Source: a phage
Sequence record: PQ536907.1
Reading direction: 5' to 3' (one strand)
Length of the DNA: 64,000 nucleotides
Shown here in pieces: positions 12,980 through 55,910 of this stretch. A model generated the notes under the pieces. That model was not told the DNA's origin and searched no databases. It saw only the letters and a program-made list of their open reading frames with translations. Each line of letters opens with the position of its first letter. The stretch's first letter is position 1. The translations under genes and the position numbers were made by a program.

Positions 12980-13312
12980 TTATTTTACTACTTTCCAATG
13001 CTGCATGTCAAGTTTACCAACTTTTTTCATCTTCTCAATTAAGCGTTCGGCACGTTGGCGAGCTGTAACATAATGCCATTCGCCTAATTCATTTTGTTCA
13101 ATTTTTCCAACGATTACTGTATTCAATTCATAAATCCAACCAGTAAAGAAATTATGAACTTGAATTGTAAAGGTGAAATCTGTTCCCATACCTTCTGTTG
13201 TTTCTACTTCAATAATATCACCTTCAACTGCCATTAAGAACCACATAGTTTCATCATATTTACCATTGAAGCATTTAGTTTTAACTGTAGCGTTCAGATT
13301 AATCGTTTTCAT
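12980..13312 (-). CDS. Hypothetical protein (110 aa)
   Basis: ORF in the 30.x cluster. Confidence 0.5.
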   Translation of the reverse strand: MKTINLNATVKTKCFNGKYDETMWFLMAVEGDIIEVETTEGMGTDFTFTIQVHNFFTGWIYELNTVIVGKIEQNELGEWHYVTARQRAERLIEKMKKVGKLDMQHWKVVK

Positions 13313-13422
13313 TTTATTCTCCTTTGTTTGTGTAAGATAATACTATCACAAAGGAACCGTACTGTAAACAACTTTGTGCAATCTTTGGAAAATAAAAAAG
13401 GACTCCCGAAGGAGTCCTCAAC

Positions 13423-13599
13423 TTATGCTTTCTGCTTACCAAAACGAGAAGCATCATCTCGAAGAACCGCACGTGCTCGGCGCATGATCTTCTCAACAGT
13501 TTGATTGATACGAGAGTTCGACCCACGCTTGTAACCAGCGCGTTTAGAATCACCAACTTTCTTTTCAACTGCTTTCTTTGCTTTAGCTTGTTTTGCCAT
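13423..13599 (-). CDS. Small basic protein (about 58 aa, Lys/Arg-rich)
   Basis: Track ORF trimmed to the internal Met (MAKQAKAKKAVEKK...), which has an upstream AAGAGA ribosome-binding site. Confidence 0.45.
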   Translation of the reverse strand: MAKQAKAKKAVEKKVGDSKRAGYKRGSNSRINQTVEKIMRRARAVLRDDASRFGKQKA

Positions 13600-13887
13600 T
13601 ATAAATTCTCTTTTAAATGAAAATGCAGGACTTATTGGCATTGCCTGCGCAAGCCCTCAAGGGGGTACTTAGGTTTTGAATATTTACCGACAGGATAACC
13701 ATAAACCTCGTCATCATACCACCAAGACTTACACAGATAACACTTTTCTGACGCATGATAGTAACATTCAAGAGGTACACCGTAAAACTGCCGGGGTCTT
13801 AAAACTATAATGATTTGCGAATCATTAATCAGACAGTTCGACGGCTCCTCGATTTAGCTCACACTAAGGCAGTGAATCTCCAATAAA

Positions 13888-14136
13888 TTACTTCAATGTT
13901 ACCACAAAGTGACGAACTGCTTTTCGTGCAGCAGAAGCCAGAGACTTAGCATACTTAAGTTCATCTTTTTCCTGAAGCTCAGCAGCTAATGCAGTTTGAG
14001 CAGGATTCAGATGTTTGAAATAACGCAGGATTTCAAGAGCTTCGGCTTCAACATCAATAGATGCGCCATAGTTTTCGTGACCATTATTCCATGCGTTTCG
14101 TTGCAGTTCAAGAGCGTGTTGTAATTGTTTAATCAT
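13888..14136 (-). CDS. rIII: rIII lysis-inhibition accessory protein
   Basis: 82 aa (T4 rIII length); position between the 30.x cluster and gene 31 as in T4. Confidence 0.8.
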   Translation of the reverse strand: MIKQLQHALELQRNAWNNGHENYGASIDVEAEALEILRYFKHLNPAQTALAAELQEKDELKYAKSLASAARKAVRHFVVTLK

Positions 14137-14262
14137 TTAAAAATTCTCGTTAGAGATTAAAACTCGGTAGTCACGTTCTTCTGAATTTCATCTTCTTTCG
14201 ACAGATCTCTCAGTTGTAGACTACCACATAGAATTGAAACTCAATTCATATTATTATTTATA

Positions 14263-14598
14263 TCACTTATAAAGACACGGAATAGCTTTATAGTGACAGG
14301 TAACAAATTTTTGTTTAATTTCTTTTGGCTGCTTAAGACCCAGAGCTACAAAAGGATGCGGAACGTTTCGAATTTGACCAACTGGAAGAGAAGTCAAATC
14401 ACCAACTTCACAAAAACCTTCAGGAACATCAGGACCGACAGAGTGAATTACACACAGTTCAGGAACTTCACCTTGAACACGTTTACCGATAATAAGTCCT
14501 GATTCTGTAACTTCTTCATCACCGGCTTGTGCAGGTTCAGAAACTAAAATAACATATTCACCGACAGCACGAATTGGTAGCTGTTGTACTTCAGACAT
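14263..14598 (-). CDS. 31: Co-chaperonin gp31 (GroES analogue for capsid folding)
   Basis: 111 aa; GroES-like mobile-loop region; synteny rIII-31-cd. Confidence 0.88.
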
Positions 14599-42598: not shown

Positions 42599-42610
42599 TA
42601 ACTATACCAC

Positions 42611-42763
42611 TCAATTAGTTGACTTTGTTATAATATCATCAGACGCTTGATTTGTAAACTGGTCTGTGTTATTTTCTTCAAAAATTTTTTCTACGAATTC
42701 CTTGAACGACTTACGTTCCTGAGCTACATTATGCTCGATTACTTTTTCAAGATTATGACTCAT
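42611..42763 (-). CDS. Small hypothetical protein (about 50 aa, below the track cutoff)
   Basis: Hand-translated ORF MSHNLEKVIEHNVAQERKSFKEFVEKIFEENNTDQFTNQASDDIITKSTN; its ATG overlaps the arn stop (ATGA). Confidence 0.4.
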   Translation of the reverse strand: MSHNLEKVIEHNVAQERKSFKEFVEKIFEENNTDQFTNQASDDIITKSTN

Positions 42764-46655: not shown

Positions 46656-46659
46656 AAAT

Positions 46660-46800
46660 TTACCATACTAGTGAATGTAGTGCCATAATAACATCAGAAA
46701 TGAAAAGCACGACTTGAATTAATCCGAACATTACTCCATAATATAGTGCTACCAATAAAGTAGCAAGGGCTAATGAATAGCCCAAGATTTTCTTAATCAT
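46660..46800 (-). CDS. Small membrane peptide (46 aa, below the track cutoff)
   Basis: Hand-translated MIKKILGYSLALATLLVALYYGVMFGLIQVVLFISDVIMALHSLVW; immediately upstream of gene 52. Confidence 0.4.
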   Translation of the reverse strand: MIKKILGYSLALATLLVALYYGVMFGLIQVVLFISDVIMALHSLVW

Positions 46801-46961: not shown

Positions 46962-47117
46962 TCAACTATTTTTAGAACCAATGTACGCGAATAATGATAA
47001 AATCGCTAATACGCCCTGAGCTGATGCTTGCAAAAATACTGAAGTTTCTCCGGTTATTACTGTTCCGATGCATAAAAAGAACCAACAGAAAAAGGCTATA
47101 CCGTGAACAAATTTCAT
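46962..47117 (-). CDS. Small membrane protein, ac-like paralog (51 aa, below the track cutoff)
   Basis: Hand-translated MKFVHGIAFFCWFFLCIGTVITGETSVFLQASAQGVLAILSLF...; GAGGAAAAT ribosome-binding site; shares the FxCW...SVFxQAxAQG pattern with 46793-46951. Confidence 0.45.
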   Translation of the reverse strand: MKFVHGIAFFCWFFLCIGTVITGETSVFLQASAQGVLAILSLFAYIGSKNS

Positions 47118-47124
47118 ATTTTCC

Positions 47125-47205
47125 TCACTGGCGTCCGAAGACGCCTTTGGTTTTAAGATTGTTACGATAGAACTGCATCACATGTTCGTTATGGAAATTA
47201 CTCAT
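47125..47205 (-). CDS. stp: Stp peptide (26 aa; activator of the host PrrC anticodon nuclease)
   Basis: Hand-translated [26 protein letters not shown], which matches T4 Stp as I recall it; start overlaps the ndd stop. Confidence 0.8.
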
Positions 47206-55729: not shown

Positions 55730-55731
55730 AA

Positions 55732-55908
55732 TTACCCTTTAAGTAAGTCGTAAAAACCGCCATTCACATGCTTAGGAGCAGAAGGCCGACGAGTAGACAG
55801 ACGATGACATTTAGGACAAACATCATTTTCTCGTTCAGAAATCTTTTTAATTTTTTCATATTCATGCCCGCAATCTTCGGATTGGCATTTATAATCATAC
55901 ATTGGCAT
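55732..55908 (-). CDS. FmdB-like zinc-ribbon protein (about 58 aa, below the track cutoff)
   Basis: Hand-translated MPMYDYKCQSEDCGHEYEKIKKISERENDVCPKCH...; the MPxYxYxCxxCG...CPxC pattern is typical of FmdB-family zinc ribbons. Confidence 0.5.
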   Translation of the reverse strand: MPMYDYKCQSEDCGHEYEKIKKISERENDVCPKCHRLSTRRPSAPKHVNGGFYDLLKG

Positions 55909-55910
55909 AA

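Follow-up and report, generated by a model that had tools for sequence, protein, structure and literature searches.

A candidate structured RNA element in the untranslated spacer between rIII and 30.9 of a T-even phage

The spacer between rIII and 30.9

The subject of this analysis is the 288-nucleotide (nt) spacer that separates rIII from gene 30.9 in a 64,000-nt stretch of phage DNA (sequence record PQ536907.1), which is referred to in its entirety as the window. The window belongs to a Tequatrovirus; in this region, its sequence matches phages slur02 and slur04 at 99.8% identity and T6 at 98.5%. The genes around the spacer all lie on the minus strand and comprise gp31 (14263–14598), rIII (13888–14136), gp30.9, which encodes a small basic protein of 58 amino acids (aa; 13423–13599), and 30.8 (12980–13312). 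According to the open reading frame (ORF) listing and the annotation of T4 and T6, the whole untranslated spacer occupies minus-strand positions 13600–13887, between the rIII stop codon (13888–13890) and the gp30.9 start codon (13597–13599). As far as comparison with related phages indicates, this block is a non-coding, structured RNA element of the sense strand that is under strong purifying selection. On the other side of rIII, the gp31–rIII intergenic region (14137–14262; 126 base pairs (bp)) is about 20 bp shorter in the window and T6 than in T4, wV7, and many other phages.

A preliminary description, made from the letters of the window alone, had singled out an ORF-poor island at 13642–13887, between rIII and the small basic-protein gene. 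This 246-bp interval is indeed the largest stretch of the 64-kb window that is not covered by an ORF of at least 60 aa on either strand. It had also rightly been called locally GC-richer: its G+C content is 42.3%, compared with a window mean of 35.6% (standard deviation 3.7% in 246-bp windows), which corresponds to approximately the 96th percentile. The upper end of the island, 13887, is correct, while its lower end has to be moved from 13642 to 13600, because the 72-aa start of 30.9 is not conserved and the real start lies at 13599. In some records (T6, NBG2), gp30.9 is given as a 72-aa protein that starts at an ATG corresponding to position 13641 (13423–13641 in the window); this ATG falls within the loop of the M6 hairpin described below and is replaced by ACG in RB69 and Dhakavirus. 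The T4 RefSeq record has gp30.9 from the 58-aa start, and this form, starting at 13599, is the conserved one. The protein itself has no Pfam or NCBIfam family and no relative of solved structure. Comparison with the rIII–30.9 region of T4 revealed the same gap, 244 bp long, with a 44-nt deletion within it; the gap is left unannotated in T4 and in T6. Other stretches of the window without an ORF of at least 60 aa measure 137–223 bp and are located at 46982–47204, 46656–46792, 55730–55910, and 42599–42759.

The longest ATG-initiated frame of the spacer has 47 aa (MRQKSV...), as had been described, and is nested in a 55-aa ORF with a GTG start (13613–13780). A longer stop-free frame of 73 codons on the minus strand (IEEPSNCLIND...RRQCQ) is missing from the ORF list because it has no ATG, GTG, or TTG start. 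One or the other of these frames might be a decayed or unconventional protein gene, since 73 stop-free codons are fairly long for AT-rich DNA and tblastn matches the longer frame at 40–100% identity in 671 phage records, in each case at this locus of T4-like phages. In addition, small proteins are annotated here in some GenBank records, including a 66-aa protein of phage wV7 that derives from the 73-codon frame. Several observations contradict this explanation, which we consider most improbable. In the window, the 73-codon frame has neither a canonical start codon nor a ribosome-binding site. It is disrupted by the 44-nt deletion in T4 and by a stop codon in L011 (L numbers denote loci of related phages, with L004 for T4 and L087 for SA79RD), and indels of +6, +1, and −1 place its halves in different frames in RB69 and Dhakavirus, even though nucleotide identity across the spacer stays at 90–98% where the reading frame breaks. 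Likewise, the two ends of the GTG-initiated ORF are read in different frames in RB69 and in the window. Neither conceptual translation matches a Pfam or PHROG family (E values up to 1), and variation is concentrated in paired, compensated positions and has no third-position pattern. With the frame not kept in relatives and no match to a protein family, a protein-coding gene was rejected; the statement that the island holds no convincing ORF is thus borne out, and no conserved coding ORF was found.

Several records (EC128, T4_ev240, AV122, and UTI-E2) label the spacer “1,4-alpha-glucan branching enzyme, GH-13-type”. This label and the “hypothetical protein” labels on the spacer are artefacts of automatic annotation. 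Furthermore, record MG065689.1, entitled “Campylobacter phage A110a”, contains a sequence with 97% amino-acid identity to the conceptual translation of the spacer. Such a match of a “Campylobacter” record to the spacer of a coliphage makes the record suspect and suggests a mislabelled or contaminated entry.

The spacer is better conserved than its flanking genes. Neither a conserved coding ORF nor a lack of conservation, either of which would have counted against the preliminary description, thus applies. Identity to Dhakavirus is 0.90–0.95 over most of 13860–13621 and 0.80–0.85 at 13700–13661, as against 0.47–0.65 in the 5′ part of 30.9 and 0.72–0.82 in the 3′ part of rIII. When compared with RB69 and Dhakavirus, module M2 of the spacer (see below) is 92–98% identical, and rIII is 61–67% identical at third codon positions and 95–98% at second positions. 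For M2 to M6, identity to Mosigvirus and Dhakavirus amounts to 90–98%. The module block as a whole appears to evolve several-fold slower than the neutral-like sites of the adjacent rIII. Similarity of this kind could also be found in a functionless block that was recently exchanged by recombination between phage genera: T4-type phages recombine freely, and in the comparison with RB69 the high-identity block continues through 30.9. In the comparison with Dhakavirus, however, high identity ends where the non-coding modules end, the block is conserved across Tequatro-, Mosig-, Dhaka-, and Gaprivervirus, and the compensatory substitutions in its helices are not predicted by neutral drift after transfer. 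We therefore attach very little weight to recent exchange as the full explanation.

The predicted structure favors one strand in particular. Compared with dinucleotide shuffles, the fold of the spacer has a z value of −2.33 on the minus strand and of −1.27 on the plus strand. Moreover, the helices include G–U pairs, at which the opposite strand would have C–A mismatches. The G–U pairs and the better minus-strand z value argue for an RNA of the sense strand rather than a DNA cruciform.

RNA modules and their covariation

Followed along the gene strand, beginning at the stop codon of rIII, the spacer forms a chain of stem-closed modules, M1, M2, M3′, M4, M5, and M6; these modules and their helices are all on the minus strand. 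A structured RNA and a regulatory leader had been among the candidates proposed for the island, and compensatory changes support helices on the gene strand. In the folding and covariance comparison across related phages, M2 and M4 appear well supported, M1, M3′, and M6 have thinner support, and M5 is hardly tested.

The first module, M1 (13859–13875), is a hairpin that was read by eye (UCAC-UGCCUUAGU-GUGA), with a 4-bp stem and a conserved 9-nt loop; a GGAG is located shortly before it. In the same by-eye reading its stem covaries, from UCAC/GUGA in the window and T4 to UCGC/GCGG in L019 and L023 and UUGC/GCAG in L029. M1 is missing in RB69, L015, and L024.

M2 (13764–13855) is a 92-nt hairpin of three helices, examined in an alignment of 16 distinct sequences (alignment A6). 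Helix P1 pairs GAGG (13847–13850) with CCUC (13772–13775), helix P2 pairs 13832–13844 with 13780–13792, and helix P3 forms a terminal hairpin at 13808–13827 (UAAUGAUU-cgca-AAUCAUUA). Among the 24 pairs, of which 99.2% of alignment cells are paired, seven are changed on both sides; these values were reached by none of 500 shuffles, and RNAalifold recovers the helices unguided. In phage PTK, one A and one U are inserted on opposite strands of P2, as a matched insertion. Variation in M2 falls mostly on paired positions, with compensation, and on the P3 loop, and the linkers are invariant. These helices also change the view of the three GC-rich palindromic segments that had been listed for the island. 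All three exist, but only CCCUUGAGGG, in M5, is a local hairpin. The other two, “ccggggtc” and “cgacggctcctcg”, are strands of the long-range M2 helix whose partners lie 40–70 nt away, and the palindromes as first read are mostly not the helices that matter.

In nearly all relatives, the 20-nt palindrome of P3 (13808–13827 in the window) has the exactly reverse-complementary sequence, so that the loop reads tgcg there and cgca in the window, between identical stems. This flip of the hairpin is restricted to slur-type phages (9 records of at least 99% identity). It suggests that the P3 loop sequence is free to vary and the P3 stem is not.

M3′ (13717–13763) was obtained from a consensus fold and consists of an outer helix (UACUAUCA, 13756–13763, with UGGUGGUA, 13717–13724) and an inner helix (CAGA/UCUG, 13734–13750). 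The inner helix covaries, from CAGA/UCUG to CAGC/GCUG in L014, SA79RD, and L032.

M4 (13672–13716), analyzed in an alignment of 15 sequences from several genera (alignment A4), is a hairpin whose stem (GAC-G-AGG/CCU-GUC, 13689–13712) contains a bulged G and encloses a conserved 11-nt loop (UUUAUGGUUAU); a conserved A-rich tail (GGUAAAUAUUCAAAACC, 13672–13688) follows. Four of the six stem pairs are changed on both sides, and the covariation score of 0.457, compared with 0.126 for shuffled alignments, was reached by none of 500 shuffles. T4 and T6 have compensated −1/+1 indels in the stem, which shift the bulged G from its 5′ to its 3′ strand. Since the bulge changes strand, these indels fit the stem better than a reading frame, and they were rejected as a sign of frame conservation. 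In addition, the loop sequence GGUU (13697–13700) is complementary to AACC (13672–13675) of the tail, and both are invariant; the complementarity comprises 4 bp in the window and 11–12 contiguous bp in L029, L037, and L020. A partner-shuffle on the outer variable positions was not significant (P = 0.13), and, with 4 bp in the window, an H-type pseudoknot in M4 is thus no more than possible. In SA79RD (L087 546–584, corresponding to 13676–13714 of the window), a prediction program has annotated M4 as a rho-independent terminator. This label is doubtful, because no U run follows M4 and because both the loop and the tail are conserved.

M5 (13654–13663) is a small hairpin, CCC-UUGA-GGG (CCCUUGAGGG), whose flanks (GUAC... 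and ...CUUG) are conserved. It is present in every spacer-bearing lineage, in some of them directly behind the rIII stop codon. Its stem is nearly invariant in close relatives and is hardly tested by covariation for this reason; the CCUC/GAGG variant in L028 is consistent with pairing.

M6 is a terminator-like hairpin, GCAGG-CAAUGCCAAUAAGU-CCUGC (13625–13648), followed by the U-rich run AUUUUCAUUU (13615–13624). In L020 and L035 its stem is swapped for GAACUGG/CCAGUUC and the loop sequence CAAUAAG is retained. The resulting two compensatory pairs probably reflect a single evolutionary event, and the covariation score was reached by one of 500 shuffles. With a 5-bp stem and a 14-nt loop, M6 was not called by the terminator scan, owing to the size of the loop; in L032 and L046, canonical terminators stand at the corresponding position. 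Downstream of M6, a helix between AUUUUC (13619–13624) and GAGAAU (13605–13610) covers the gp30.9 ribosome-binding site, ahead of the AUG at 13597–13599. When the 95 nt ahead of the 30.9 AUG were folded at minimum free energy in 18 lineages, most spacer-bearing lineages had the same layout: a stable hairpin comes first, next a U-rich run, and then a helix that covers the ribosome-binding site. This layout recurs even where the hairpins are non-homologous. In these folds, CUCC-type bases pair with a ribosome-binding site of GGAAG or GAGA type. The bases involved are nearly invariant, and the pairing over the gp30.9 ribosome-binding site is accordingly predicted from the folds rather than based on covariation.

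Two alternative pairings were set aside. A single-sequence fold that pairs the 5′ end of the spacer (UUAUUGG...) with the M6 loop is not conserved, and it was rejected because RB69 has no 5′ partner and yet keeps the M6 loop. An RNAalifold alternative, AGGGCUUG with UAAGUCCU, is disfavored, as L020 and L035 break this pairing and keep the M6 stem.

Searches against Rfam 15 yielded no match in 13600–13887 (E values up to 10), none in 20 related loci (E values up to 1), nothing noteworthy when the L029 spacer was searched by itself, and no match at gathering level anywhere in the 64-kb window. Scans of the relatives for transfer RNAs (tRNAs) and transfer-messenger RNA (tmRNA) found none, and the literature searched contained nothing on the rIII–30.9 spacer. 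On this evidence, the spacer appears to belong to no described RNA family.

Distribution among relatives and the M3 module

M2 is present as one copy per genome in 614 phage records, in which it is essentially never annotated. The genera that carry it are Tequatro-, Mosig-, Dhaka-, and Gaprivervirus, and a pattern scan of IMG/VR for further M2 variants returned mainly contigs that had already been collected, together with chance matches. In distant enterobacterial T-even lineages, from Klebsiella, Enterobacter, Citrobacter, and other hosts, M2 is absent, and M4, M5, and the terminator-like hairpin are retained, sometimes in a changed order. Across lineages, modules are thus present, absent, or re-ordered independently of each other. 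Still more distant T4-like phages have no spacer; in L040 (1735–1869), for example, a 44-aa homologue of gp30.9 starts 8 nt after rIII, with no spacer between them and a canonical terminator behind.

Many relatives contain a further module, M3, at the junction of M2 and M4. M3 is an RNA of 140 nt with a closing helix and four internal helices; in 12 sequences, 15 of its 42 predicted pairs are compensatory. It was found in 403 phage records, with hosts that include Klebsiella, Escherichia, Enterobacter, Shigella, Yersinia, and others (for example at L007 699–838, L029 1865–2004, and L025 1758–1897). M3 has no Rfam match, and a scan of 185,579 representative genomes of bacteria and archaea found no copy of its invariant 20-mer. 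Short k-mer resemblances to RNase P RNA, tmRNA, and 4.5S RNA were dismissed as chance, being neither collinear nor supported by Rfam, and a relationship to T4 rnaC or rnaD was discarded, as comparison by eye revealed no visible similarity. Taken together, M3 looks like an undescribed family of phage RNAs.

M3 is missing from the window, T4, T6, and RB69, and no M3-like sequence lies elsewhere in the window. In the window, T6, and RB69 the site is occupied by M3′, and T4 has neither. The 44-nt deletion in T4 (L004 approximately 2115–2160, corresponding to window 13720–13763) takes out most of M3′, which T6, wV7, and the window keep, and for this reason T4 is not representative of the rIII–30.9 spacer. 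The window thus carries an allele of a modular locus without the optional M3. The preliminary suggestion that the island might be a remnant element is tenable in this sense alone, namely as an allele that lacks the 140-nt M3 module.

Transcription, possible roles, and known parallels

A late-promoter box, TATAAATA, lies upstream of rIII on the minus strand (14255–14262; pattern scan), and the same box is annotated in SA79RD. After gp30.9, a scan identified a strong intrinsic terminator on the minus strand (13398–13419; a 9-bp stem, a UUCG loop, and a U run), which is annotated as such in phages wV7 and NBG2 and closes the rIII–30.9 transcription unit. Inside the spacer, the pattern scan, which allowed one mismatch for the late box, revealed neither such a box nor a middle promoter of the MotA type, and the best sigma-70-like matches, at 8 of 12 positions, are below the chance level of shuffled sequence. 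The spacer has no convincing promoter of its own and no strong terminator that would bound a separate RNA gene. With a late promoter upstream of rIII, a terminator after 30.9, and no late or MotA promoter in between, the spacer is most simply understood as being transcribed within a joint rIII–30.9 transcript. T4 mRNA processing relies mainly on RNase E and RegB, and the strong RegB consensus is GGAGRAYARAA (PMC3014915). The spacer contains two GGAG motifs, UUGGAGAUUCAC in M1 and GAGGAGCCGUCG in M2, neither of which matches this extended consensus.

One sequence in the spacer, TTTACG-N17-TACTAT (13786–13758), does resemble a promoter of a particular class. PeSLs are promoter-early stem-loop cassettes of T4-type phages (Arbiol 2010; Comeau 2014, PMC4122927), whose early-promoter consensus in PST/T4 is TTTACW-N17-TAYWAT; by definition, a ribosome-binding site and start codon come right after the promoter, and a genome contains many copies (PMC4122927). 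The spacer might accordingly be a PeSL-type cassette, or a DNA recombination module that swaps M3, M3′, or nothing and has no RNA function of its own. The motif fits the published consensus at 11 of 12 positions (PMC4122927) and that of sigma-70 at 8 of 12, P3, which is a hairpin with a U run, comes shortly before it, and the M3/M3′/T4-deletion junction falls inside it. Measured against the published definition (PMC4122927), however, the −10 box is about 155 nt away from the nearest real start codon (that of 30.9, at 13599) instead of immediately before one, and the element is single-copy, as blastn of the spacer against the 64-kb window returned the spacer itself and chance matches of at most 24 nt. 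The motif is also lost in T4, through the 44-nt deletion, and in RB69, through a 6-nt insertion; sigma-70 matches of 8 of 12 fall below shuffle expectation, and the compensatory helices with their G–U pairs point to selection at the RNA level. The spacer was not filed as a PeSL on account of the motif's destruction in T4 and RB69, its distance from the start codon, and the single copy, and we consider a PeSL-type or recombination cassette improbable. A repeat or mobile element was rejected as well, there being no second copy in the window and no M3 20-mer in the bacterial and archaeal genomes scanned.

The reading that we favor, with moderate confidence, is that the spacer acts in cis within the rIII–30.9 transcript, as a 3′ untranslated region of rIII and a leader of 30.9. 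It is favored because the spacer has no convincing internal promoter, and hence would be co-transcribed with its neighbors, because it always lies directly upstream of 30.9, because it ends in a terminator-like hairpin, and because it is predicted to pair with the 30.9 ribosome-binding site. According to this model, the spacer would be transcribed from the minus strand together with rIII and 30.9, would remain untranslated, and would work as RNA. M6 and its U-rich run may serve as a leaky terminator or as a stabilizer of the 3′ ends of rIII transcripts, and the final small helix may hide the 30.9 ribosome-binding site and in this way set the amount of gp30.9. A protein, or other portions of the RNA, would make contact with the conserved loops and linkers of M1, M2, M4, and M6, and such contacts could control processing, stability, or read-through.

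Several points weigh against such a role. The function proposed for the spacer is deduced from its anatomy. The invariant loops and linkers exceed the needs of a simple stabilizer or terminator and fit a trans-acting RNA or an RNA–protein complex equally well. Expression of 30.9 should be possible without the spacer, because L040 has none, and at least M3′ is dispensable, as T4 has lost it and yet grows normally. The M6 stem is weak (5 bp), with a 14-nt loop, and escapes the terminator scan, and the ribosome-binding-site helix and M5 are almost invariant, giving no covariation signal. Finally, for the RB69 lineage, recent exchange could be part of the cause of the conservation.

The invariant loops lead to a second view, in which the spacer is the precursor of stable, trans-acting non-coding RNAs or of an RNA–protein particle, possibly with gp30.9; the RNAs would be cut from the rIII–30.9 transcript, as T4 tRNAs and stable RNAs are from one precursor. 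We regard this as possible but hold it only tentatively. It would account for the self-contained, stem-closed, bead-like organization of the modules, for stems that covary around invariant loops and linkers, and for the independent gain, loss, and re-ordering of modules between lineages. The optional M3 is itself a compact RNA of 140 nt with several helices, 15 of whose pairs are compensatory; it occurs in 403 phage records, its 20-mer is absent from all 185,579 representative genomes of bacteria and archaea, and L040 indicates that 30.9 can be expressed without any spacer. Conversely, neither a promoter nor a strong terminator delimits a separate RNA gene, and the analysis identified neither complementarity to a target nor a partner protein, gp30.9 being without a Pfam or NCBIfam family or a solved structure. 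The constant place directly before 30.9, with a paired ribosome-binding site, also suits a leader. In its widest form, which we likewise hold only tentatively, the rIII–30.9 spacer of enterobacterial T-even phages would be a modular locus for undescribed functional RNAs, with M2, M4–M6, and M3 processed and acting in trans. Such RNAs might be, for example, a decoy against host defense, an antiterminator that modifies polymerase, or a sensor, and a particle might include gp30.9.

A different cis-acting role is that of a processive antitermination RNA comparable to put of phage HK022, in which nascent hairpins would bind RNA polymerase and promote read-through of M6 and of the terminator after 30.9 into 30.8–30. 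The spacer does provide a multi-hairpin RNA with conserved loops and bulges upstream of terminator-like structures, and T4 delayed-early expression has long been tied to read-through of termination sites. Nonetheless, there is no sequence or model likeness to any Rfam family, and the presence and order of modules vary, unlike in a polymerase-docking element; we see very little chance that this is the function of the spacer.

Few genomes have been studied as thoroughly as those of T4 and its relatives, and yet this 288-nt block, whose conservation is close to that of second codon positions, is blank or mislabelled in hundreds of GenBank records. If the cis-acting role that we favor holds and the spacer controls expression of rIII and 30.9, the T4 repertoire would gain a new cis-regulatory RNA, and the spacer would offer a handle on the protein gp30.9; if the modules act in trans, T-even phages would encode an overlooked family of non-coding RNAs. 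Interest in the locus is raised by its setting in the T4 model system and by the pointer to the undescribed M3 RNA. The alleles with M3, M3′, or neither, in otherwise near-identical phages, form a clean natural experiment, and L040, with no spacer, is a useful natural control for the contribution of the spacer.

Several known systems resemble the spacer in part. T4 rnaC and rnaD (species 1 and 2) are structured RNAs that are cut from a longer transcript. In contrast to the spacer, they are encoded at another locus, the tRNA cluster, and comparison by eye revealed no similarity to the spacer or M3. PeSLs share with the spacer an intergenic position, a stem-loop upstream of a TTTACW-N17-TAYWAT-like motif, and a cassette-swap junction. 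They measure about 60 nt, whereas the spacer has 288 nt, is single-copy, and continues behind the motif with neither a ribosome-binding site nor a start codon; furthermore, T4 and RB69 have not kept the spacer motif, and the helices are under selection at the RNA level. The RNase III sites of T7 early mRNA (R1.1) are, like M2, irregular intercistronic hairpins, and M2 has the lower and upper stems parted by an asymmetric internal loop that are seen in R1.1-type sites, although mRNA processing in T4 is mainly the work of RNase E and RegB. The end of the spacer recalls the expression platform of an attenuator or riboswitch, with a hairpin, a U-rich run, and a ribosome-binding-site helix before the 30.9 AUG. 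It differs in that Rfam detects no ligand-binding domain of a known riboswitch class, in that M6 of the window would be a weak terminator, and in that no alternative anti-terminator pairing was identified in the spacer.

The autoregulatory leader of T-even gene 32 mRNA consists of an H-type pseudoknot and a subsequent A/U-rich stretch upstream of the start codon. It has no sequence similarity to the spacer, which contains five further modules, and the putative second stem of M4 comprises 4 bp in the window and is not statistically supported. Like the gene 32 leader, as generally known, the spacer is a conserved and apparently structured untranslated RNA before a small T-even gene, and M4, in which the loop could pair with the downstream AACC past an A-rich linker, matches the topology of that leader.

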